From assembly GCA_030390025.1 (NCBI GenBank), contig CM059431.1, positions 123,196,001 to 123,260,000 on the forward strand: DNA of 64,000 nt. Direction: 5' to 3'. Below, in pieces: positions 11,627-39,975 of the stretch (position 1 is its first letter; every line of letters begins with the position of its first letter). A program made the translations under genes and the position numbers. The stretch is from Squalus acanthias. Its lineage: Eukaryota. The notes beneath the pieces are model-generated. The model saw only the letters and a list, made by a program, of their open reading frames with translations, was not told the DNA's origin and searched no databases.

Positions 11627-14484
11627 GACAGCCAGAACTGTGCAGAATTATGAAGACAGAATAGCTCCTGCACTTCCTAAAAAGTAGATTAAAGACATTT
11701 TAACGTATTGCAATTGCAGCCAAAGCAACCAAAACCTGCCCGACAAGCAACTTAGCAGCCTAAAATGACGAAACAGAGACTTAACTTAATGGAGGTGAGG
11801 GCCCCTTTAAATAGTGCTTGTGGATACTGCTCCCCAATTGTGCAAGGACCTAAATCAGTTCAAGGACCCTCATTATTATAGTTTAATTGGATCTGTGCTT
11901 AATTTCGGCAAGTGCTTGTTACGCCTAAGGGGCACTGACGTCACCTGACCGCATAGTGGTTTCCCCACTTAGGCAACAGTTCAAATTCACAGTCAGAGCT
12001 CGATGATGTCATTGGACCCTGTTCTGCATATTTAAAGAAGGACCTTGCCGGCTTCAGGCAACTGCCCTTTTCGACTCCACAGAAAAACAGGTTAAAATTG
12101 AAAACAGTGGGACCCTTGTGAGATGTCAGTGAGTAAGTCACCCAGGTAGGCAGGATTAAAATCAACCCTTAAATAGTTACTGTTATGAATCACATTTCCA
12201 AAGTGTGGCTTTAATTTTTACAGGTAACTAGGTAACAACAGGGCAGTTATGAATGGAACATCCCATTAAAGTGTTACTCTCTGAATATTTGACATAATTT
12301 CCAAAGGGTTAATATATTATCAATAGAAATAATTTCTTGAATCCTTTGATTAGTTATGACACTAAATCATATTTTGTTCACTGTTAAGTTAATAGGTGAG
12401 ATATTAAGATGATACTAGCAACGCACAGAATAAAATTCATGCCTCATTAATGGAATCTAAAGTAAAATGTGACAGTTCTGATTAATTTGTAACTTAGTCG
12501 ATGAAGTTGTCATTAATCTACTCTGTTAATTCAGAGGGTTACCTAGCTGTATATTTTTACATGAATACACCAAAGGATTTTGCTGTTGGGAGTTGATTTT
12601 TGATGCAGTATGAGTTCCGGCATATTACCAAGGAAAACATAATTTTATTCTTTAAAATTTAGGGAGATGATTATAATACACTTCCTCTGAATGTGCAAAT
12701 GGTCTCACTCCAGTTGTGTTCTAACTCTTCTGCCTGGCAACACTGACAGTCCCCACTGTGGAGCGACAACCTTTGTGACAGCAGAAGGATCGCAAGGGGA
12801 GATTTTAAGCTCATTTGCATACGCTTGGGCATGACATTCAAATCAGGTGCAAAATTGAAATCTGGTTTGGGCACAAAACGCAGGAGTGAAATAATCTTAA
12901 TTGAATAGCCTTCTGATTTGAATTTTGTATCCAAACCTGATTTTTATCATGTGCCTAAGCACCTGAAAACAAGCTTAAATAATCTCCTGCTGTGAGATGC
13001 ATATATTTTGACTGCTGACAGCAAGCAAGCCTTCCCTTATTGAGAGAAGAGCAATCAACTCAGACTGGGATGTATTGTATGCTCATCATTAACGGTGGAA
13101 GAATGATTGCTCCTTTAGCTATTCCTAAGCAGCCACATATGCTCTGAAGTTTGGAGGACTTAGGATGGTTATAAAGATGGAGGAACTCTTGCTAAGCACC
13201 TTATTCTGGTCAATAAACCTTGATAGTCTGAACAACTTTGATAAAGGTAGCATTTTTGGTAATAATTTAGAGGTGTGGTAACTACTAGTGAGCAAGCACT
13301 TAACTTTGCTCTTCACCGAGATAAACTGACATTCCCAGATGGTTTGGTAAGTTTTGCAAGTGAGTGACTGAATTATATAGAACAGGAAGATCCCAGTTTT
13401 GCTCCCTTTGGCTGGACTTTCCTCTGTGATCCCACCTGATGTCAGGCAGGATAGAGGCAGAAAATAAGGCAAAATTGGGCTACGAGTCCTATCAGCGCCT
13501 CCCTGCATGACTGCAATTTATTTTCCTCCCCCACTACTGGGACCACCACAGGCCGTCCCTTCCCCACCTGTCACATGTAAATGCCAGCAGGGAGGCAGGG
13601 CCTGGAGTCTCAGTTGATTTCCCTGCTGTCTACCCCTGTTACTGCTTGTCCCTGGGACCTCCAAGAGAAGTAGTCCCTAAGATGGTGGTAGGAAAGCCTC
13701 GAAATGCCAGGATGGAAGGAGTTGGCTTTGCAATAGCCTCCTCTCCCTCCAGTTTGGTTCTCCGCACTAAGCCTTTTAGGCTGTGGTCTAAAAGAAATGT
13801 TGCCGTACTCTTCAGGGCTCTTTGATTCTCTTTAAATCAGCGGTCCCACTGCAGCACCCCAGGAATTTTCCAGGGTCAACTGTTATCCAGTTGGCGTTGG
13901 ATGGCGGGGGGTCACCAGGAATCCATCCTGCATAACAAATGACCCCAGCTGCAGGAAAAAAAAATTCGGATCATGGCAGTGTCAGGACAGCAGGGAAATG
14001 TCCCATCATGTCACGAAGAGGAGCCCCTGGTCTCTGCTGAATTGGTTGATCTCAGATAGTGATTGCTTCAAGGCTACTACAATCAGCCTCAGCTCCCAGG
14101 GTACGGAGAGGAAAATCAGGGTTTGTGCTCCTGTTTGATACCAAGCACCCCTTGATAAAGTTGTACATGCTGCATGGGGACAGGATCTAGTTCAGCTGCT
14201 GGACCACGACCTGCAACGCTGCACCAGGGAACGTGGGTGCCCGCTCTGTACCACTTGCAGCCACTTCTTCCCTTGCAAAGTTTCATTGCTGTCTGAAACC
14301 AGAGTGCACCTCCCTGTAAGAGCTGCTGGTTGCCTTTCAATGTCATTAGTGATGCCCAATTTCTCGACCCCTTCCCTCCTACCCAAACTGGTGTGCAGCT
14401 AATAAGCAGTGTGGGTAGCAGTGACTGCATGCCTGACACTTTATAATGAGCTGGCTGCATGAATTTAATACAGTCCCTGCACAC

Positions 14485-17277
14485 TCGTGAACAGGCGTGT
14501 GCCTCGAATCCTGCGTGCCCATGTGAACAGGCATGTGTAGCATGCGCCTCGACTCCTGCGTGCCCATGTGAACAGGCGTGTGTAGCATGCGCCTCGACTC
14601 CTGCGTGCCCATGTGAACAGGCGTGTGTAGCACGTGCCTCGACTCCTGCGTGCCCATGTGAACAGGCGTGTGCAGCGCGCACCTCGACTCTTGCGTGCCC
14701 ATGTGAACAGGCGTGTGCGGCGAGCGCCTCGACTCTTGCGTGCCCATGTGAACAGGCGTGTGCAGTGCGTGCTTCGACTCCTGCGTGCCCATGTGAACAG
14801 GCGTGTGCAGCGAGCGCTTCGACTCCTGCGTGCACATGTGAACAGGCGTGTGCAGCGCGTGCCTCGACTCCTGCGTGCCCATGTTAACAGGTGTGTGCAG
14901 CTCACGCCTCGACTCCTGCGTGCCCATGTGAAGAGGCATGTGCAGCACGCGCCTTGGCTCCTGCGTGCCCATGTGAACAGGCGTGTGCAGCGCGCGCCTC
15001 AACTCCTGCATGCCCATTTGAACAGGCGTGTGCAGCGCGCGCTTCGACTCCTGCCTGCCCATGTGAACAGGCATGTGCAGCGAGCGCCTCGACTCTTGCG
15101 TGCCCATGTGAACAGGCGTGTGCGGCGAGCGCCTCGACTCTTGCGTGCCCATGTGAACAGGCGTGTGCAGCGCGTGCTTCGACTCCTGCGTGCCCATGTG
15201 AACAGGCATGTGCAGCAAGCGCCTCCACTCCTGCGTGCCCATGTGAACAGGCGTGTGCAGCACTCGCTTTGACTCCTGCGTGCCCATGTGAACAGGCGTG
15301 TGCAGCACGCACCTCGACTCCTGCGTTACCATGTGAACAGGCGTATGCAGCGCGCACCTCCACTCCTGCATGCCCATGTGAACAGGCGTGTGCAGCGCGC
15401 ACCTCGACTCCTGCATGCCCATGTGAACAGGCATGTGCAGCACTCGCTTCGACTCCTTCGTGCCCATGTGAACAGGCGTGTGCAGCACGCGCTTCGACTC
15501 CTGCGTGTCCATGTGAACAGGCGTGTGCAGCGCGCGCTTCGACTCCTGCGTGCCCATGTGAACAGGCGTGTGCAGCGCGCGCTTCGACTCCTGCGTGCCC
15601 ATGTGAACAGGCGTGTGCAGCGCGCGCTTCGACTCCTGCGTGCCCATGTGAACAGGCGTGTGCAGCGCGCGCTTCGACTCCTGCGTGCCCATGTGAACAG
15701 GCGTGTGCAGCGCGCGCTTCGACTCCTGCGTGCCCATGTGAACAGGCGTGTGCAGCGCGCGCTTCGACTCCTGCGTGCCCATGTGAACAGGCGTGTGCAG
15801 CGCGCGCTTCGACTCCTGCGTGCCCATGTGAACAGGCGTGTGCAGCGCGCGCTTCGACTCCTGCGTGCCCATGTGAACAGGCGTGTGCAGCGCGCGCTTC
15901 GACTCCTGCGTGCCCATGTGAACAGGCGTGTGCAGCGCGCGCTTCGACTCCTGCGTGCCCATGTGAACAGGCGTGTGCAGCGCGCGCTTCGACTCCTGCG
16001 TGCCCATGTGAACAGGCGTGTGCAGCGCGCGCTTCGACTCCTGCGTGCCCATGTGAACAGGCGTGTGCAGCGCGCGCTTCGACTCCTGCGTGCCCATGTG
16101 AACAGGCGTGTGCAGCGCGCGCTTCGACTCCTGCGTGCCCATGTGAACAGGCGTGTGCAGCGCGCGCTTCGACTCCTGCGTGCCCATGTGAACAGGCGTG
16201 TGCAGCGCGCGCTTCGACTCCTGCGTGCCCATGTGAACAGGCGTGTGCAGCGCGCGCTTCGACTCCTGCGTGCCCATGTGAACAGGCGTGTGCAGCGCGC
16301 GCTTCGACTCCTGCGTGCCCATGTGAACAGGCGTGTGCAGCGCGCGCTTCGACTCCTGCGTGCCCATGTGAACAGGCGTGTGCAGCGCGCGCTTCGACTC
16401 CTGCGTGCCCATGTGAACAGGCGTGTGCAGCGCGCGCTTCGACTCCTGCGTGCCCATGTGAACAGGCGTGTGCAGCGCGCGCTTCGACTCCTGCGTGCCC
16501 ATGTGAACAGGCGTGTGCAGCGCGCGCTTCGACTCCTGCGTGCCCATGTGAACAGGCGTGTGCAGCGCGCGCTTCGACTCCTGCGTGCCCATGTGAACAG
16601 GCGTGTGCAGCGCGCGCTTCGACTCCTGCGTGCCCATGTGAACAGGCGTGTGCAGCGCGCGCTTCGACTCCTGCGTGCCCATGTGAACAGGCGTGTGCAG
16701 CGCGCGCTTCGACTCCTGCGTGCCCATGTGAACAGGCGTGTGCAGCGCGCGCTTCGACTCCTGCGTGCCCATGTGAACAGGCGTGTGCAGCGCGCGCTTC
16801 GACTCCTGCGTGCCCATGTGAACAGGCGTGTGCAGCGCGCGCTTCGACTCCTGCGTGCCCATGTGAACAGGCGTGTGCAGCGCGCGCTTCGACTCCTGCG
16901 TGCCCATGTGAACAGGCGTGTGCAGCGCGCGCTTCGACTCCTGCGTGCCCATGTGAACAGGCGTGTGCAGCGCGCGCTTCGACTCCTGCGTGCCCATGTG
17001 AACAGGCGTGTGCAGCGCGCGCTTCGACTCCTGCGTGCCCATGTGAACAGGCGTGTGCAGCGCGCGCTTCGACTCCTGCGTGCCCATGTGAACAGGCGTG
17101 TGCAGCGCGCGCTTCGACTCCTGCGTGCTCATGTGAACAGGCGTGTGCAGCACGCGCTTCGACTCCTGCGTGCCCATGTGAACAGGCGTGTGCAGCGCGC
17201 GCTTCGACTCCTGCGTGCCCATGTGAACAGGCGTGTGCAGCACGCGCTTCGACTCCTGCGTGCCCATGTGAACAGGT
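14485..17277. repeat. 45-bp GC/CpG-rich minisatellite, ~62 copies
   Basis: Unit gactcctgcgtgcccatgtgaacaggcgtgtgcagcgcgcgcttc; essentially identical copies ~15540-17120, more diverged copies on the left. Confidence 0.97.
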
Positions 17278-19074
17278 GCGATCGAATTCTCGGTCAATGT
17301 CTGTGCATTAAGTAAATAGCTGGCTTTACGTCTCAGCCCAGGTGCTGAAATACAGCTTTGGTATCAATAGCTCTTTTCTGACACAGTTAAAATAAAATAA
17401 TGGTAGAGAATCACCGTAATGATCTTTACCTTTAGACTCATCAGAAGAAGATAGACTTTGGGTGGCCACTAAAAGTTGAGGAAGTTTGCTAGCTGCTATT
17501 TATAAGGGCAAAATTGGAGCTTCAATCAGCAACACTCACTGTCGTGCAGCCAATCCCCTAGTCTTAGCTCTTTGCATACACAAGGCTAAAATGACAGCGC
17601 ACCCACATACTCTGTCTCCTCCCTGCTGACGCAACAGTTTCACACTTTCACACACTGTTGAAGCATGATTAAAGCCTGTTAACTTTTTTCTGCCTTGTAC
17701 AAGACTTCCTTTTCATTTGGTGATGCTGGTAATTTGTACAAAGAAACCGAACCCACAGAACCTTTGCATTCCTAGGGATGTGTTTGTTCTATGTTCAGGC
17801 AAGTCACTCCTAGTTCCAGGAAGGGATGCACAAAGACACATCAAAGAGCAAATTAAAAATGTTCCTTCTGTTGAATTGACAAGAATGAACAGAAAGGACT
17901 GTATGCTAATAGTACAGATATGCAGCATTTTGCTTTACCAGCTTTTTGACAGGGGTTACTGAAAGGTTCATAGCATTTGCTATTCCCAATGTGTAGAAAA
18001 GTTTATTGTATGTAGTAAACACTGGCAATGGCATTTCATTATCAATCTGTTATCATTTTAATTTACAATGCAAGATTTTGAAGTAAGGAGTAAAGTTCAA
18101 AATCTAAGTGCTGCAAGATTGATGGAAACAACAGCAATTGTGACATTGGAGTAGAGTGTGTTGATGAGCTGTCTCAAGTCCTGTAAATTGTTTAGTTAGA
18201 GCTTGGGAAACATGGAGAAAATGAGCCCATGCTGGAGCAGTTTGTTTTAGCTTTTACTTAGAAATAAATTCTGCAATCCTCCCAAATAAAGTTCCTTATT
18301 TTCAATGAAGCTTCATGATTCCAATAGTTCATTATTTGAAAATCCCTCTGCAAATTAATGCTAATTTATGAATGGTAGGCATTTCTTAAATGATTTATTT
18401 ATTGGGTGCACACGCTGCTAATCTGTTACTGGAAAGCACAACATCTGCAGAAGCACGTCTAACCAATGCATTTCATTTTATTTTTTAATCCTCTGCACTT
18501 GCAGATTCAGCCTGAAAACGTGCCAATAGCATTTCTCAGTCTCAATACTACATTGTCATTCTGGTCATTACCGTGAAGATGCTTCGACCAACTATTGTAT
18601 ACAAATCCTGCCTTGGAATAACAAGAAGGTTCCTATTTGTGACTTATTAGAGTAGGCTGAGCCTCACATAATTGTTTCTGCTCTCATTTGCTTTGGTGAT
18701 AAGTAGGAACAGAGAGCAATCCTGGCAGGGTGATGATATCCTCAAGGTGTCTATTGATGAATAGCACACTGATAGCCAATAAATCATGGACTTCAAGGTA
18801 CCTTTCAGCCAAAGAGGGGGGGGGGGGGGGTCATTCATTAACTTGATTCTATCTTTTTTTTAATTTAACTTGAACAGTCTCACACAGTGACTGCAAGTCT
18901 CCGCTGGATCGCTCAGCAATCAGAGGAGTACAGCAACAATAATACAAACTATTCCACACCCATGTAGACTACCGACATTAGAACTTCAGATATAGTGGAA
19001 GGATACAGACACATGGAACTATGTGGTCTGCATATCACTTGCCGAAAATAACATCTTAGTTTTATTAGCAACAA

Positions 19075-30791: not shown

Positions 30792-32426
30792 TGTAGAATT
30801 CGCAATTATCGCGATTTCATTTTTAATAAGGAGAAAACACAAAGTTTCGTTCAAAACAGCTTTTATTTCAGCGGAATGCTGTCAGGTTTAAATTGGACAC
30901 AAGCAGCCTGTAAAATGGCCGCCGCACCTCGTGACAGAACATTCTAGACTTTTCGGCAGGCAGACAAGATGGCGTTCCAATAAACATTCTTGCAAGATCG
31001 ATAACGATTCAGCACAGTGAAGACAATACACAGGACATTATGGGTTTACAGTATAAACATCGATACTGGAATCGGTCTCCCAGGTACAAAGGAAAGCCAT
31101 CAAGGGCCCATCCAAAGGACATTAGTATGTAAACTCCCAACGGCTCTACGATGAGAGAGCCGTTAGCAGGTAGTTATACAGGACACTTGGAAGCCCCCAA
31201 ACCCCTCCAGGGGGAACACCGACCGATTTAACAATGGGAGAAATATTAACAGGTACTCAAACATTCAGGAGTAGCCCCGAAACCCATTAAGGACAGAGAT
31301 CACCCATACAGGACTTTTTGGGCGCCAAACCTTAAACAAAAGAATGGACATTGTAGTTGGGCGGGAAACGGAAGAACTGTGCACTATAATTGCAGGCCCA
31401 AACCGTCCATTCGCTCTCTGGCCTCTTGCTCTTTTGCTCTTGACTCTTGTCGCTTGCTGCTGTTATCATCGTGGCTGCTCCTGTGTTTTATCCGGTCGAT
31501 TCGTAACCTCGTGGCTGCTCCTGGGTAAAAGACTGTTGCAAAGACCTATGTTGGTAGCTGGCAGCGGAACCGAAGGCCCGGGATGAGATGAGATGAGATG
31601 AGATGAGATGAGAGGAGAAGAGAAGAAGACCTTATCCATCGCCACGGTCAGTAAATCCCGACCGCGCCTGTAGGTCGATCAGCCAAGTCTTCTCGACAGG
31701 AAGTTTTCTTCTTTAACAAGACATATTGCATCAATGATAACTGGACTGTGCAAACACATCGTATCAGTGATATTGACAACGGTGCTCCACGATTAAACTT
31801 TGAAGCCCACCAACAGAGGTCTTCACTACAGCGGACGGTCCAGCCGACTGACCGAGCAGCAGAAGCAGTAAACAAGTGGGACCAGGAGATCTCCTGACCA
31901 ACACGTGGGTGCTGCGGTGAAAAACATCCGATCAGCTATTCGGGATTTCTCCGAGTTATTACGAGTGGTGAGCATGAGTCTCGGGATCCTACGAAGCTAG
32001 TTTTAGGATAGTTATTGATAGGGGAGGGTTTAAAGTTTAAGGATATTTGTAATGTGTGCCCTATTTACGTTGTGCTGGTCGTTCCTCGTTTCCCTAAGAG
32101 TGATTATAACTGTTTGTAAGATTGTACTGTCATTAATCTGTGCATATGACATGTATTTCATAATTTTAAGTATCATGCAATAAAGATTTTCCATTTCGTA
32201 CCGTTCAAACCAAGTCTACATGAGTTTTATCTCCATTACTGCTCTCGCATCTAAGTCCAGTGTCTAGAACCGTAAGGGAGAGTGATTCGAACCACTCACA
32301 GGGGTGTCTAGTGTTCCCAGACTGGCTGGAGACCAGGCCTAGACCCGCACTGACATACAGGCTGCACAGAGCCGCGTGAACCTCACAGGCCACGAGACAC
32401 GCAGGGTCAGGAGAGTATCCCTTACA
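30792..32426 (+). repeat. 5' LTR (1635 bp)
   Basis: tgtagaattcgc...gtatcccttaca; direct repeat of 38346-39975; contains (gatga)6. Confidence 0.97.
31358..31390 (+). promoter_or_regulatory. Putative LTR promoter (GC box plus TATA-like)
   Basis: gggcggga at ~31358, then tataat at 31385-31390 followed by a pyrimidine-rich stretch; YY1-like aaaatggccgc and caagatggcg motifs upstream at ~30911 and ~30965. Confidence 0.45.
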
Positions 32427-32430
32427 GAAA

Positions 32431-34242
32431 ATGGCGACCGCGGCAGGACACTGGCAGCGAGAGGGTAGTGTGTTAGATTTTGGAATGACTGTACGAAATG
32501 TGATGCAGGAAAAGATAGCGGATTACGTATTTGGAAAGGTTAATCTAACGAAAAAGTGGATAAGCGAATTGTTAGCGGATAAGAGCCCACTAGAGGCAGC
32601 TGAAAGGTGGACGGATAGTAAGGAGCATAAAAAAGCAGTTGAGAAAGCAGTCTGGCTTATGTGCTACAAAAGGCAGGTTCAGATTTCAAACCAGACCAAT
32701 ACAGCGCTAACCGCTCGAATCAAGCATCTAGAGGAGGAAATGGAGGAGAAGGTTTCTGGAGGGGAGGCGCTCATTAAGAGTTTAAATGAGTTACGCCAGG
32801 AAAGCCAGGAAGTCTCCAGTTACCTTAAAACAAGGGTAGAGTATCTCGAGTGCCAGATCACTGAAGCAAAATTAAACGAGAGTAGGATGAAGGAAAGATG
32901 TAACCGTCAAGCTGCCCAGATAAGAACTCAAGAAGAGAGCTTAATGGGGGTTAGGTCGGCGTATAAGTTGGCCCTTGAGGATAAGTTTCAGGGAGCCGAC
33001 CATAGCGCCTGCGAAAAAGAGATAGAGAGCCTCAAAAAGGCCGTGAATAATGCGAACGGCATGGTGTGCCTTATTAATCCGTCGGCACGCCAGCCGCTAG
33101 TAAATGAGAGATTTAGAAATTCCCCACCAAGTAAAGCAGAAGAAGTAGTAGCCAGTGCGCCCTCCGCGCCACCCAGCTATTCAGAAACCTGGGTTAGGGA
33201 GGAAGCAACGGAAGAAGCAAAAGAGCCCGTTGAAAAAGAGGTAGAAAAGGGATCGTTGTATCCAGTAACGGGGATTAAAAGGGGCCCAAGCAGAAACGGT
33301 GGGGAAGAACCGGGGGATCTCCTCGGACAGCTGGTGTTGCCTCACAGTTCACATCAGCTGAGGGCCATGATAAACCACGTAAGGAAGCTGACCGAGATAG
33401 ACGACCCTTCCGTACATTTTAGGGAAGTTGAGCAAGCCGCAGCCATCAACGGCTGCGATGATGGGGAGACAGCAAAAATGCTGCTGTTCTCGTTAGATAG
33501 CTCGGTCCTTCAGTGTCTCTCAGGCGATAGCAAGAGGGGTAATAAAAGTTATGAGGAATTGAAAAATGAGGTCCTAGAAGTAGTGGGAGCGAACGACGGA
33601 GGTCCGTTTGCTAGAGTGGGACAGACAGTGCAGATGGAGGGAGAACCCCCGAAGGTTTTTGCCGACAGGCTGTGGCCAGTATATGAGCGCAGCTGTCTAG
33701 GTGCGCCCGAGCGCGAAGATGTGGAAGGCGCCGCTTTAATTCATTGGCTTAGGTGCATAATAGCCAACAGTTTACCAGCCGTTAGAGAGCAGGCAAAAGC
33801 CTGGTTCGATCCCAATGACCTCAACCTTACGGAAGAGTCGGTCTTGAATCGACTCACGTTAGGTTACCGTAACATAAGGGGTATGGCAACACGTCCCTTT
33901 AAGGGAAGAGTACATGAGGTACGACCCGCAGCCCCGACTCAAAGAGAGTGGCATCAGGAGGGTAATCGCGCCCCACAGGCAAGTAATGCCTGTTACGGGT
34001 GTGGGAAGACAGGGCACTGGCGCAAGCACTGCAGGAACCCTTGGAAGGATTCCAAGGATAAAAATCCCGCGGTCCGAGCCCAGGCGCCTGTCCCGGCTAA
34101 GGAAGCAAAGGCACCCACCTCTCCCGAAGACCTCGAAGCAGTGTTAGGAGTCATGCGCAAGATGGTTTTGAATGCGCGTGGACAGGTGGCGGTCGCAACC
34201 GGCCCCGTAGGTGCCGCAGGACCGTCTAATAGTGCCCCATGA
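32431..34242 (+). CDS. gag: Gag polyprotein (603 aa)
   Basis: N-terminal coiled coil; PSAPPSY late-domain motif (33160-33180); MHR-like QMEGEPPKVFADRL (33631-33672); CCHC zinc knuckle CYGCGKTGHWRKHC (33991-34032); located directly after the LTR/PBS. Confidence 0.92.
   Translation: MATAAGHWQREGSVLDFGMTVRNVMQEKIADYVFGKVNLTKKWISELLADKSPLEAAERWTDSKEHKKAVEKAVWLMCYKRQVQISNQTNTALTARIKHLEEEMEEKVSGGEALIKSLNELRQESQEVSSYLKTRVEYLECQITEAKLNESRMKERCNRQAAQIRTQEESLMGVRSAYKLALEDKFQGADHSACEKEIESLKKAVNNANGMVCLINPSARQPLVNERFRNSPPSKAEEVVASAPSAPPSYSETWVREEATEEAKEPVEKEVEKGSLYPVTGIKRGPSRNGGEEPGDLLGQLVLPHSSHQLRAMINHVRKLTEIDDPSVHFREVEQAAAINGCDDGETAKMLLFSLDSSVLQCLSGDSKRGNKSYEELKNEVLEVVGANDGGPFARVGQTVQMEGEPPKVFADRLWPVYERSCLGAPEREDVEGAALIHWLRCIIANSLPAVREQAKAWFDPNDLNLTEESVLNRLTLGYRNIRGMATRPFKGRVHEVRPAAPTQREWHQEGNRAPQASNACYGCGKTGHWRKHCRNPWKDSKDKNPAVRAQAPVPAKEAKAPTSPEDLEAVLGVMRKMVLNARGQVAVATGPVGAAGPSNSAP
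32432..32449 (+). promoter_or_regulatory. Primer-binding site, tRNA-Ser-like
   Basis: tggcgaccgcggcaggac 5 nt after the LTR end; TGG complements tRNA CCA; the TGGCG...GGCAGGA pattern resembles the complement of vertebrate tRNA-Ser 3' ends (imperfect, recalled from memory). Confidence 0.6.
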
Positions 34243-35286
34243 CTAGAGTCCACGCAGCCTGCCTACCTGTGTCCTTTTAAAAGACACGCACAGGAGGGGG
34301 TCTGCGGTGAGGAGGCCAGGTTAAAAGAGCAGGCCTTGCGGGAGGAGAACGCCCGCTTAATAGGGAAAATAGATGGGCTGGAAGGGCAGCTTAGAGAGCA
34401 GACCCTGCGGGAGGAGAATGCCCGAGAAATGGGAAAGTTAGACGTGCTCAGGCTAGAAGGGCAGCTTAGAGAGATAAAAGCAGCCTACAGGGTAGCCAGG
34501 AGCAGGGAGTATGAGGATTTAAAACCACAAGGCACACAGGCAGGCGTAGCAGCTTGCATCAGGGGAAGGGACATCCCGGACGATCATGCAGCGTTTTTCT
34601 GGAGTTGGGGGTTAGATGACGAGGACCCCAGGGTACCCTGGTCAGATGAGGATAGTGCAGATGAGCATAGTGATGATGACGGGTGGTTTCAGAGGAACGG
34701 TCTGGAAGGATTGGGGCCGCTAGGTAGAGATCCATACGGGGTGGACACACAAGCTGCAGGTCCCGACAGCAGGAGGAAGGAGCTAGAGGAGGCCGGGCCA
34801 GCCGCTATGTGGTTCCCAGAGGTGTGGCCGCCCGCTTTGAACGTCCAGTCCTCAGGGGAGGCAGAGTTCGCGAGTGAAGGGCCGCCTGCTGGGCCGAGCA
34901 GGGCGGGGCCCCGAACTACCAGCCCCGAGGTTAGGGAGGCGGAGTCAGCGGAGGCGGGGCTGGCGCCTGTGATGGAACCCCAGGTCATCCCGTTGAAGGT
35001 CTCGGGACCCGGTCCGTCCGTCACGGAGCCCCCGCCCATAGCAATTCCCCGTAGGTCAAGCAGAGTCCCCCAGCCCAGGAAGATGTGGTCAGGTCCACAG
35101 GCTGCCCCAGGGCGTAAGTTTCAGGTTAAGATAACCCGGGTAGAGACAGGCCACATCGAAGCAGTAACAGGCTGCGGCAGATCAGAGGCAAGGGTCAGCG
35201 CAGCAACAGGCTGCGGCAGACCAGAGGGAAGGGTCAGTGCCCTCCCACCGTCGGGAAGAGCTCGCAGCAGCCTTCTCAGGATTTAA
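34243..35286 (+). CDS. In-frame readthrough extension of Gag occupying the pol position; unknown non-enzymatic protein (coiled coil, acidic, Pro-rich)
   Basis: Open from the codon after the gag TGA (tga cta gag tcc...) to TAA at 35284-35286 in the gag frame; the ORF-track start at 34336 is TTG; internal repeats LREENAR..GK.D...LEGQLRE x2 and TGCGR.E.RVSA x2. Confidence 0.65.
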   Translation, partial: LESTQPAYLCPFKRHAQEGVCGEEARLKEQALREENARLIGKIDGLEGQLREQTLREENAREMGKLDVLRLEGQLREIKAAYRVARSREYEDLKPQGTQAGVAACIRGRDIPDDHAAFFWSWGLDDEDPRVPWSDEDSADEHSDDDGWFQRNGLEGLGPLGRDPYGVDTQAAGPDSRRKELEEAGPAAMWFPEVWPPALNVQSSGEAEFASEGPPAGPSRAGPRTTSPEVREAESAEAGLAPVMEPQVIPLKVSGPGPSVTEPPPIAIPRRSSRVPQPRKMWSGPQAAPGRKFQVKITRVETGHIEAVTGCGRSEARVSAATGCGRPEGRVSALPPSGRARSSLLRI

Positions 35287-35570: not shown

Positions 35571-37922
35571 ATGGAACGACTCATAGTATTGCTCGCGGCA
35601 ATCGGATGTGGATTGGCCTATCGGGGCCTCACCAAGGATGTCGTGGTGTTTGGATGTTCCGGGGACACGGCCCCCATCGCGGTGGATGGGACCGGGAGAC
35701 GGAAGGCAGAAGGGACCAGCACCTATTTCCACAAGGGAAGGTGGCCAGGATGGCTGGGAACGAACTCAACGGAGTATTCCAGCACATCGGGGTTCGCCTA
35801 CAAAGAGACTTCTTTAATGTGCCCCAAAGTACGGATCATCGCACCCAGGATCAGCGTCACCGTCGGCAAACGGATTTGTTTGACCTGCAGTGGGAATGTC
35901 CCATTGAGCCGATGGTGGTGGCTGCGAAAGCTGAGCAAAACTATGAGGAACTCTTCGGTTGAGTGGGAGCGACTGGGTAATAATACCCATCGGACAATTA
36001 CGGGGACAAACGGACAAGTGAAAGTCTGTTGGGACAAATGGTGGGAACCGGATGAGGGGATTTATGTTTGTATGTGGGGGTCAAAGTACGTTTGCCCCAA
36101 AGGCATCTCCATATTCTTTATTAACCAGTGGCAGGATAACGGACAGGGGATGAGGTGGGATGCGAGCACCAGGGGGTGCGGAGCCCCATACTCTCCGATC
36201 CCAGTAAATGCCACTGAGCTCATTACGCGCCCACGCAAAGCCCCGCCCACGATTCCGGTAGTTCTAACTGAGGAAGAAGGGTGCCCTAAAACTAGTAAGG
36301 GACCCGGGAACGGTTTGGTACTGGTCCCCACAGACCAGATACTATTTCAGGGGGTACATTACGCGGTGGCCTCAGTGATTTTAAATCTCACTGAGGTACG
36401 GTTACCAGAGTGGTGCCCCAAAAAGACGGAACAGTTGTACCAGGTCCTGTTGACCAAGATGTTCAGGCAATTTTACGAGTTTGATTTTGCAGAAATTGAT
36501 AAGACAAGTTTGTACACCGCACCGCAGGAAGTTTTGGATCAAGTTGGGAGGCAAAGAAGGGGTTTGGTGAACGATGCGTTCACTGCTTTTAACACAGGGA
36601 CATCTGTGGTCAACGCTCTAGACAGTGTGGAGCTGCAGACCCAGATTAATGGTTTAAAAACACAGTTAAAGGATATTCTCACAGATGAGAATAAAGTGGT
36701 AGGGTCGGGTCTGCACGAGGACCAAGCCATGACACTACACTTAAAGGAAATCATAGCAGAGCTGGAGAAACATGCGCGTACGGTAAATGCCCTGATTAGG
36801 GAAGATCGGAATGCATCCGATCAGGCTGCGCAGAACGAGGTGTGCGTGCTTTACGGGGCGTGGTTACTGGGCGAGGGCCGCAGTAATTTGGAGGATTTAA
36901 AACAAGGTTTGGTCCCGTCCTGGATAAGTAACAAACACCTGCGGGCGCTCCACCCTTTTCAGAACGCATTAAGTCCGTGCCAGCTCAGGCTAGCTTCAGA
37001 AGCTTACCCAGTCCCCGTGGACTGCGGACGTTCAAACCATACTATTATGGGAATAGTATTACGCATGCCGGTTTTGGGCAACACAGCAAAGCCCGCCCCG
37101 GTGTATCGGGTAGAGAACATTGGTGTCATTCAGGGGGGAGCCCACATTCGTTATGCAGCGGTTCCACCTTACGTCATCCGCTGGGAGCAAACGATGACAG
37201 GTACAGATCTCTCTGGTTGTCGTGGCAGGGGAGCACACATAATACTGTGCCCCCAGCACTTGAATGCCTTTTTAACACCACAGTGCGGGTTCAGAACGGC
37301 TGGCGCCAAGTCCATGAATTGCACCATGGAGGCAATGGCACAAGATCATGTGCCTCCGCAGGTAGCATACATCGGGGGTGGAACATACTGTGTTACCACT
37401 GCAGCGCAACACTACCAGCATGGAAACCGTAGCCGGTGTCCGGTGAGTGACAGCAGTTTCTGTTTTAAACCCAGGGCTGAAGTTCAAGTAGCACAACAGC
37501 GAATTATCCCAATCCCTGAACCATCCACTGTTCATCTCACAGTAAAAGAGAATTTTACCGACTTGCAGCGATTTGTCGCACATTTTGGGTACCTCATTCC
37601 CCCTCTCCCTGAGCATTTAACCAAACTTCTGAAAGCCGTCGCGGTGTCACAAAAGCATTTTTATACATTAGAACAGAAAACCGTCGAGATAGGTACAGAC
37701 ATTTTGGACATAGTGGTTCCACCGTGGTGGAATCTGTTCACGAATATTGAAGTGCCCTCATGGGTCAGAATAGCCTCCCACATTTTAGTCGTCTGTCAAG
37801 TGTTTATTGTAGTATACCTTTTGTTCATACATTGTAAAAGAGACAAGCGCCTCACCAAGCATGAGAACACGGGAGAGTGGCGAGAACGTTACGTGCGCGT
37901 GCACGATGAGAGCGCAGTGTAA
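35571..37922 (+). CDS. env: Envelope glycoprotein (783 aa): signal peptide, Ig-like domain, F-like class I fusion core, TM anchor
   Basis: Signal peptide MERLIVLLAAIGCGLA; Ig motif C106..W..DEGIYVC167; furin site RQRR (36549-36560), then fusion peptide GLVNDAFTAFNTGTSVVNAL and heptad repeat; Cys-rich region; TM IASHILVVCQVFIVVYLLFIHC (37770-37835); short basic tail; several N-glycosylation sequons. Confidence 0.92.
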   Translation: MERLIVLLAAIGCGLAYRGLTKDVVVFGCSGDTAPIAVDGTGRRKAEGTSTYFHKGRWPGWLGTNSTEYSSTSGFAYKETSLMCPKVRIIAPRISVTVGKRICLTCSGNVPLSRWWWLRKLSKTMRNSSVEWERLGNNTHRTITGTNGQVKVCWDKWWEPDEGIYVCMWGSKYVCPKGISIFFINQWQDNGQGMRWDASTRGCGAPYSPIPVNATELITRPRKAPPTIPVVLTEEEGCPKTSKGPGNGLVLVPTDQILFQGVHYAVASVILNLTEVRLPEWCPKKTEQLYQVLLTKMFRQFYEFDFAEIDKTSLYTAPQEVLDQVGRQRRGLVNDAFTAFNTGTSVVNALDSVELQTQINGLKTQLKDILTDENKVVGSGLHEDQAMTLHLKEIIAELEKHARTVNALIREDRNASDQAAQNEVCVLYGAWLLGEGRSNLEDLKQGLVPSWISNKHLRALHPFQNALSPCQLRLASEAYPVPVDCGRSNHTIMGIVLRMPVLGNTAKPAPVYRVENIGVIQGGAHIRYAAVPPYVIRWEQTMTGTDLSGCRGRGAHIILCPQHLNAFLTPQCGFRTAGAKSMNCTMEAMAQDHVPPQVAYIGGGTYCVTTAAQHYQHGNRSRCPVSDSSFCFKPRAEVQVAQQRIIPIPEPSTVHLTVKENFTDLQRFVAHFGYLIPPLPEHLTKLLKAVAVSQKHFYTLEQKTVEIGTDILDIVVPPWWNLFTNIEVPSWVRIASHILVVCQVFIVVYLLFIHCKRDKRLTKHENTGEWRERYVRVHDESAV

Positions 37923-38345: not shown

Positions 38346-39975
38346 TGTAGAATTCGCAATTATCGCGATTTCATTTTTAATAAGGAGAAAACACAAAGTT
38401 TCGTTCAAAACAGCTTTTATTTCAGCGGAATGCTGTCAGGTTTAAATTGGACACAAGCAGCCTGTAAAATGGCCGCCGCACCTCGTGACAGAACATTCTA
38501 GACTTTTCGGCAGGCAGACAAGATGGCGTTCCAATAAACATTCTTGCAAGATCGATAACGATTCAGCACAGTGAAGACAATACACAGGACATTATGGGTT
38601 TACAGTATAAACATCGATACTGGAATCGGTCTCCCAGGTACAAAGGAAAGCCATCAAGGGCCCATCCAAAGGACATTAGTATGTAAACTCCCAACGGCTC
38701 TACGATGAGAGAGCCGTTAGCAGGTAGTTATACAGGACACTTGGAAGCCCCCAAACCCCTCCAGGGGGAACACCGACCGATTTAACAATGGGAGAAATAT
38801 TAACAGGTACTCAAACATTCAGGAGTAGCCCCGAAACCCATTAAGGACAGAGATCACCCATACAGGACTTTTTGGGCGCCAAACCTTAAACAAAAGAATG
38901 GACATTGTAGTTGGGCGGGAAACGGAAGAACTGTGCACTATAATTGCAGGCCCAAACCGTCCATTCGCTCTCTGGCCTCTTGCTCTTTTGCTCTTGACTC
39001 TTGTCGCTTGCTGCTGTTATCATCGTGGCTGCTCCTGTGTTTTATCCGGTCGATTCGTAACCTCGTGGCTGCTCCTGGGTAAAAGACTGTTGCAAAGACC
39101 TATGTTGGTAGCTGGCAGCGGAACCGAAGGCCCGGGATGAGATGAGATGAGATGAGATGAGAGGAGAAGAGAAGAAGACCTTATCCATCGCCACGGTCAG
39201 TAAATCCCGACCGCGCCTGTAGGTCGATCAGCCAAGTCTTCTCGACAGGAAGTTTTCTTCTTTAACAAGACATATTGCATCAATGATAACTGGACTGTGC
39301 AAACACATCGTATCAGTGATATTGACAACGGTGCTCCACGATTAAACTTTGAAGCCCACCAACAGAGGTCTTCACTACAGCGGACGGTCCAGCCGACTGA
39401 CCGAGCAGCAGAAGCAGTAAACAAGTGGGACCAGGAGATCTCCTGACCAACACGTGGGTGCTGCGGTGAAAAACATCCGATCAGCTATTCGGGATTTCTC
39501 CGAGTTATTACGAGTGGTGAGCATGAGTCTCGGGATCCTACGAAGCTAGTTTTAGGATAGTTATTGATAGGGGAGGGTTTAAAGTTTAAGGATATTTGTA
39601 ATGTGTGCCCTATTTACGTTGTGCTGGTCGTTCCTCGTTTCCCTAAGAGTGATTATAACTGTTTGTAAGATTGTACTGTCATTAATCTGTGCATATGACA
39701 TGTATTTCATAATTTTAAGTATCATGCAATAAAGATTTTCCATTTCGTACCGTTCAAACCAAGTCTACATGAGTTTTATCTCCATTACTGCTCTCGCATC
39801 TAAGTCCAGTGTCTAGAACCGTAAGGGAGAGTGATTCGAACCACTCACAGGGGTGTCTAGTGTTCCCAGACTGGCTGGAGACCAGGCCTAGACCCGCACT
39901 GACATACAGGCTGCACAGAGCCGCGTGAACCTCACAGGCCACGAGACACGCAGGGTCAGGAGAGTATCCCTTACA
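38346..39975 (+). repeat. 3' LTR (1630 bp)
   Basis: Same sequence as the 5' LTR by eye except (gatga)5; AATAAA at 39728-39733; followed by the TSD agag. Confidence 0.97.

Follow-up and report, generated by a model that had tools for sequence, protein, structure and literature searches.

A pol-less, lokiretrovirus-like endogenous retrovirus in Squalus acanthias retains a UGA-CUAG gag stop and an open, enzyme-free frame behind it

In a 64,000-nt stretch of the Squalus acanthias genome (contig CM059431.1; the window), the gag reading frame of a provirus (32431..34242, forward strand) ends in TGA (34240-34242) followed by CTAG, and the same frame then stays open for 347 codons, here called X, until it closes at TAA (35284-35286). 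The ORF coordinates thus confirm the arrangement described in the first-pass annotation, including a possible Gag-X fusion of 951 residues (603+1+347). The feature is real, but X is not a new gene; to judge from its matches to other copies and to a related family, it is a patchwork of the two ends of pol and a piece of a related capsid gene. The window provirus inserted very recently and belongs to a subfamily of a lokiretrovirus-like endogenous retrovirus (ERV) that is non-autonomous, having no pol; the subfamily must borrow its Pol from more numerous helpers and keeps recombining with them. Across the subfamily, breaks in the readthrough frame are about as rare as in gag, whereas the residues that it encodes drift.

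Pol-less ERVs usually lose their coding capacity; here, a pol-less partner of about 900 copies keeps gag, env, a leaky stop, and an open enzyme-free frame. The kept frame separates readthrough from its usual purpose, the making of Pol. Two questions can now be put to the test: does the Pol tail of a retrovirus serve a separate function, and is readthrough of gag maintained because it shields genomic RNA from decay? The family also adds a very young, high-copy, Loki-like element with a UGA-CUAG junction in a cartilaginous fish.

All features of the provirus lie on the forward strand. The 5′ LTR (30792..32426) has TG...CA ends and is directly preceded by AGAG, the 4-nt target-site duplication, and the 3′ LTR (38346..39975) is preceded by a purine tract and followed by AGAG. 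Apart from a 5-nt microsatellite indel, the LTRs are identical over approximately 1,630 aligned bases (the single listed mismatch falls just outside the LTR), therefore the insertion is very young. Gag (603 aa) has an N-terminal coiled coil, a capsid region, and a CCHC knuckle at residues 520-535; Pfam gave zf-CCHC at E=0.31 only, the CCHC motif being visible in the sequence, and only weak matches to coiled-coil families for residues ~60-190. The intact env (35571..37922) has an RQRR cleavage site. At E<=1, env has no Pfam match to PF00523 (Mononegavirales fusion protein), and it has no PDB sequence match; its top ESM Atlas match is Fusion glycoprotein F0 (0.93, 207 of 256 features, a score that is uncalibrated for parts of proteins), so that env may be called F0-like by language-model features only. 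A weak immunoglobulin-like signal was also seen at env residues ~120-200 (35835-36090; Pfam Ig_3 E=0.41, PDB matches E~1). At the other end of the element, the start codon of gag (ATG) and the initial TGG of the primer-binding-site position overlap, 4 nt past the 5′ LTR (32427-32450); the primer site would hence be part of the coding sequence, with the leader inside the 1.6-kb LTR. No tRNA gene matching the primer site was found in the 64-kb window, and the Gag start MAT(A/V)AG is common to the sister family B and to foreign relatives.

The genome (3.7 Gb) contains many near-identical copies of the provirus, with gag 99-100 % identical among the top copies. When 30 loci were fetched by gag, 25 ran past the same stop into LEPAQPVYLCP, protease (PR) and RT, and five, including the window copy, ran into X. 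Fetching 30 loci by X/env gave 17 with the gag stop just upstream and 13 in which RNase H (RH) and integrase (IN) precede the last 250 residues of X and share their frame. Exact matches to 29-nt junction motifs across the whole genome numbered at least 899 for the pol-less form and at least 1,239 for the pol form (lower bounds, since only exact matches count), with none for the controls. Helper copies have the organization LTR-gag-pol-env with PR, RT, RH, and IN, the last three recognized by Pfam and PR lying after the stop, and a modal Pol frame of 1500 aa; the window copy has no pol. Accordingly, the pol-less copies show what defines a non-autonomous ERV: no pol enzymes, intact LTRs and cis signals, many copies, and a helper with shared termini. 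Mosaic junctions occur among the copies, and tail length variants of +7 and +/-13 codons are found in both pol-less and helper copies. The intactness of the pol-less tail, gag, and env may therefore be partly inherited, these parts being refreshed from helpers by recombination. Some pol-less copies stand in tandem at ~7.7 kb spacing (G000:C1:143657921-143673390 and similar pairs), probably sharing LTRs. Four of the 14 runs listed, all of them contigs and of presumed RNA status, were compared with the window; a contig of one of them, X1, spans 34204-34459 with five differences. It carries the pol-less junction in another sample and is not evidence of transcription.

The first part of X is the start of Pol. 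Residues 1-11 (34243..34275) are identical to helper (family A) copies at 25-28 of 33 nt, and the first-pass suggestion that LESTQPAYLCP is a residual Pol start was correct, as helpers read LEPAQPVYLCP at this place, followed by protease. This stub is conserved at the nucleotide level between families: where families A and B have identical residues, 29 of 43 share the codon as well in codons 1-11, but 29 of 90 do so in codons 12-44, and this excess points to constraint on the RNA. Over the following ~35 nt, X resembles the corresponding stretch of pol (13 of 20 nt) but reads it in another frame; in a predicted hairpin, these nucleotides are the 3′ arm.

Residues ~24-93 of X (34312..34521), an internally duplicated segment, are, as judged by profile and DNA matches, derived from the N-terminal coiled coil of a sister family's Gag, of which they represent the end. 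Profiles of 8-10 foreign Gags scored X at 22.5-29.1 bits, where the best of 1000 shuffles reached 11.5-11.9, and X also scored above all window decoys. Family B Gag carries LREENARL...LRDVQAAYKIA at the corresponding place, and the insert has ~71 % DNA identity to family-B gag. The echo of Gag previously noted in X is therefore significant against related Gags, but the element's own Gag is not its source: derivation from it was rejected on a non-significant BLASTP match (E=2.3) and the absence of a DNA match to the element's own gag. The rest of X, residues 95-347 (34525..35286), is the in-frame C-terminal tail of Pol, which in helpers lies downstream of the integrase SH3 domain; 251 of 253 residues are identical to the Pol tail of helper L004. 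With 73 % of X being Pol tail and residues ~24-93 traced to a related Gag, the earlier description of X as a novel ORF did not hold.

Other features attributed to X in the first-pass annotation are present. The duplicated LREENAR/LEGQLRE units correspond to two repeats, D7 and D12, spaced 69 and 75 nt, and the TGCGR repeat to a 39-nt repeat, D9; the Trp/acidic and the Pro-rich stretches are both there. Likewise, X is non-enzymatic, with no Pfam match above cut-off and a predicted structure of one long helix and disorder; in the single-sequence model, the confident helix spans residues 21-92. No homologues of X were found among 6,297 candidates of 190-608 aa and 8,000 scored candidates of 609-2000 aa, which is weak evidence. 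The idea that X is a Loki 'smc' gene placed between pol and env was rejected, since smc lies 5′ of gag and helpers carry no such ORF after IN. In length, the window X is atypical. The usual X has 369-406 codons, with a mode of 386 (26 of 150 copies), and the window copy is shorter through an in-frame 117-nt deletion near 34524, for which the genome holds one match with <=2 mismatches.

TGA in the conserved leaky context UGA-CUAG (34240..34246 in the window) was present as the in-frame stop between gag and what follows at all 51 of the 51 junctions examined, including those of family B. Together with a frame of 339-410 codons in 138 of 150 copies, this indicates that the readthrough frame is not due to chance. 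Helpers have pol behind the same stop, and the pol-less element has indeed retained the gag-pol recoding site, as had been proposed. No start codon for Pol is present at the junction, and pol continues the gag frame, so Pol is probably made by readthrough. The available sections of a recent review class UGA-CUA as a type II readthrough context (PMC13517186). A similar stem-loop is predicted 3′ of the stop in pol-less (34249..34309) and helper copies; the two sit at the same place and are distinguished by one two-sided change, and in the pol-less copies the 3′ arm derives from pol in a shifted frame. The stem-loop by itself is not significant, with z-scores of only -0.7 to -1.9, and in most family-B copies MFE folding does not recover it. 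Family B (L061-L069) is an older sister family with 42 % Gag identity and the same UGA-CUAG junction, and two of its members (L061 and L064) have large pol deletions of their own.

Frame retention was scored with 40-residue probes in 150 copies each for X, gag, and pol, disregarding the rest of the gene. Besides the 138 copies with X frames of 339-410 codons, 11 were shorter, every length being different, and one had 949 codons. Short frames numbered 19 of 150 for gag and 30 of 150 for pol, giving breaks per codon of 2.2e-4 for X, 2.2e-4 for gag, and 1.4e-4 for pol, in a survey in which the probes pick copies identical over 40 residues, the copies are related, and some breaks are possibly assembly errors. 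Just 15 % of simulated frameshifts leave 339-410 codons, and the other two frames of the X region have stops every few tens of codons. Each length class of X may combine several events, and a late frameshift could account for one small class. The frame of 949 codons through the X probe belongs to G000:C2:83664027, in which the gag stop must have been lost or bypassed. A second 3′ junction (L017 type), in which the insert joins Pol slightly further upstream, is also in frame and has been amplified: all 40 of the matches listed span it at 96-100 %, and the 26 of these 40 that were paired by eye with copies in the X frame set all have frames of 369-405 codons.

The residues behave differently from the frame. 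Pairwise pN/pS in pol-less copies was 0.98 for the insert and 0.91 for the tail (16 copies of 386 codons; the set leaves out the window, the frameshifted L012, L017, L054, and two duplicate loci), and in 13 helper copies it was 1.34 for the tail and 0.13 for IN; the tail values are dominated by private changes, as the copies are few and most were chosen for likeness to the window tail. In gag, pN/pS was 0.18 (19 pol-less copies) and 0.07 (25 helper copies), and in env 0.08 (26 copies). The insert variants, 22 non-synonymous and six synonymous on 260:79 sites, match the neutral expectation, and the contrast between X and gag has Fisher p values of 0.0006 and 0.004. The first 20 insert codons (60 nt), with the hairpin 3′ arm, hold one variant, whereas the 279 nt that follow hold 27. 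The first-pass annotation had named frameshifted or neutral X in sibling copies as evidence against a preserved ORF; siblings look neutral in their residues but mostly keep the frame, so that preservation of X applies to the frame and not to the sequence it encodes.

Behind integrase, helper Pol is extended by ~270 aa of disordered sequence that is acidic and rich in Trp and Pro (L004 1430-2263; window 34525-35286). Catalysis does not depend on this tail, as most related Pols reach only a few residues beyond the SH3 domain; in one catshark relative the tail has 168 aa. The helper tail frame is nevertheless kept, with 3 of 150 copies ending between 1250 and 1478. No tail homologues were found via the Atlas or in the related Pols examined. 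A basic motif (35050-35091) shared with the catshark Pol tail was not significant, 1,272 of 5,000 shuffles being as good, and no parallel for this motif among chromatin tethers was found in the literature search. Some motifs of the tail may resemble BET-binding or kinesin-binding motifs.

Our leading explanation, held at somewhat less than an even chance, is that the selected product is the Pol tail, delivered on Gag-X by readthrough. As the copies show, recombination has swapped PR, RT, RH, and IN for a foreign Gag fragment, giving a pol-less partner amplified in trans, in which the coiled-coil piece is joined in frame, with the Pol start upstream and the disordered Pol tail downstream. Ribosomes would pass the UGA-CUAG at a few percent, as helpers presumably need for Pol, to yield a minor Gag-X of 951 aa here and usually ~990 aa. 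The tail would be a disordered accessory peptide, acting via short motifs and carried into particles on Gag, with the coiled-coil piece mostly a spacer left over from the recombination that removed pol. Since pol-less genomes dilute Gag-Pol in shared particles, a kept frame would preserve the ratio of tail to Gag. Delivery of the tail is favoured because helpers also keep the tail frame even though most related Pols end at SH3. Against it, the residues of X look neutral, when gag, env, and IN have values of 0.07-0.18. In a broader form, the satellite would have rebuilt the recoding cassette for a functional enzyme-free Gag fusion with a virion-borne Pol tail and perhaps the captured coiled coil of a rival family, which we regard as possible but doubtful.

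An equally doubtful alternative is that the act of translation matters, occasional readthrough over 1.1 kb shielding the unspliced RNA from NMD, so that more pol-less genomes are packaged. Any open frame would then suffice, and the Pol-tail frame would be the only long one available, the other two being closed by stops. This predicts a kept frame with pN/pS of ~1 and fits the neutral residues best; it also agrees with the few variants in the hairpin-arm codons (1 in 60 nt, against 27 in 279 nt) and with the inhibition of NMD by readthrough elements in reporters, as given in the accessible part of one study (PMC5360307). However, more than 3 kb (env and part of the 3′ LTR) would still lie untranslated behind the X stop, and by the same part of that study the readthrough needed to inhibit NMD rises with distance (PMC5360307). 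In the consulted portion of a 2026 review, the role of NMD in unspliced readthrough RNAs is unresolved (PMC13517186).

Rather unlikely, in our estimate, is simple inertia, by which X would be a harmless in-frame scar of recombination and Gag-X junk, in a family too young and too often overwritten by helpers to have gathered breaks. The identical LTRs, the 99-100 % identity of gag in top copies, the neutral residue change, and the lack of homologues are as expected from this, and indels of 39, 69, and 75 nt, being repeat units, preserve the frame from the outset. However, pol-less and helper copies have diverged at 5-8 of 33 nt in the stub and at 7 of 20 in the hairpin arm, which makes the module older than the present burst. 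At least two 3′ junctions have been amplified, both in frame, and no short X length recurs in 150 copies, when one short length of gag was seen three times.

It is improbable that the captured coiled coil is itself active, altering assembly, or using or blocking the sister family's particles, as a displayed Gag multimerization or Env-binding helix of that family: the piece is a conserved Gag coiled-coil end, duplicated internally, kept by both junction types and modelled as one confident helix, but its pN/pS is 0.98, the family-B copies examined are mostly decayed, and Gag-X would enter particles without an extra handle. The earlier idea that Gag-X serves to recruit helper Pol received no support from any result here.

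The family is likely to belong to the lokiretroviruses. RT of the helper scores 185.5 bits against foamy virus, 184.8 against MLV, and 127 against Ty3, which gives an order of scores and not a tree, and the nearest Pols are from the sharks Heptranchias and Scyliorhinus. With the lokiretroviruses, as described in the available text of Wang & Han (PMC7947760), it shares LTR-gag-pol-env in helpers, a probable N-terminal coiled coil in Gag, and an RXXR site in env. It differs in its host, a cartilaginous fish, and in the ~270-aa tail of Pol. In the portion of that paper seen, the Loki 'smc' is placed 5′ of gag ('smc-gag-pol'), the one Chondrichthyes row of the table reads 0 of 3, no pol-less gag-X-env form is described, and the terms 'readthrough' and 'stop codon' are absent from the main text (PMC7947760). 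The listed gag of Loki-Bsp ends in TGA and its listed pol starts with CTG, maybe an unremarked readthrough junction (PMC7947760, in the part available).

Among pol-less elements, zebrafish BHIKHARI (Bik-1/-2; bioRxiv 10.1101/2024.03.25.586437) is, from the accessible text, likewise recently active, Loki-related, and pol-less, with an N-terminal coiled coil in Gag; Bik-1 has a single ORF (gag), whereas the element described here adds env, the readthrough site, and a second open frame. ETn/MusD and the mysTR derivatives of deer mice are, in the sections available, high-copy pol-less partners of coding helpers, in which the interior was replaced by recombination and the sequence just 3′ of pol was kept (PMC10089650). 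Those derivatives have no coding capacity (PMC10089650, same sections), whereas the present element shows purifying selection on gag and env, and its replaced part is still open in the readthrough frame. Gamma- and epsilon-retroviral readthrough, in the consulted pages of the review, has in common with this family an in-frame stop that lies after the CCHC knuckle and before the protease DTG motif; it also has a 3′ stem-loop, which in this family is a prediction, and UGA is the gag-pol stop in some fish and frog retroviruses (PMC13517186). The hexamer here, UGACUA, is that of Sindbis virus (alphavirus type II) and is not among the retroviral hexamers given in those pages (PMC13517186). Readthrough in those retroviruses makes Pol, whereas the predicted product of the pol-less copies is enzyme-free. 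A literature search of limited reach turned up no report of a pol-less element whose retained readthrough leads into an open frame free of enzymes.

Elsewhere in the window, a GC-rich minisatellite of 62 copies of a 45-nt unit (14366-17300) is stop-free in several frames, with ORFs of up to 994 codons; it is probably non-coding.
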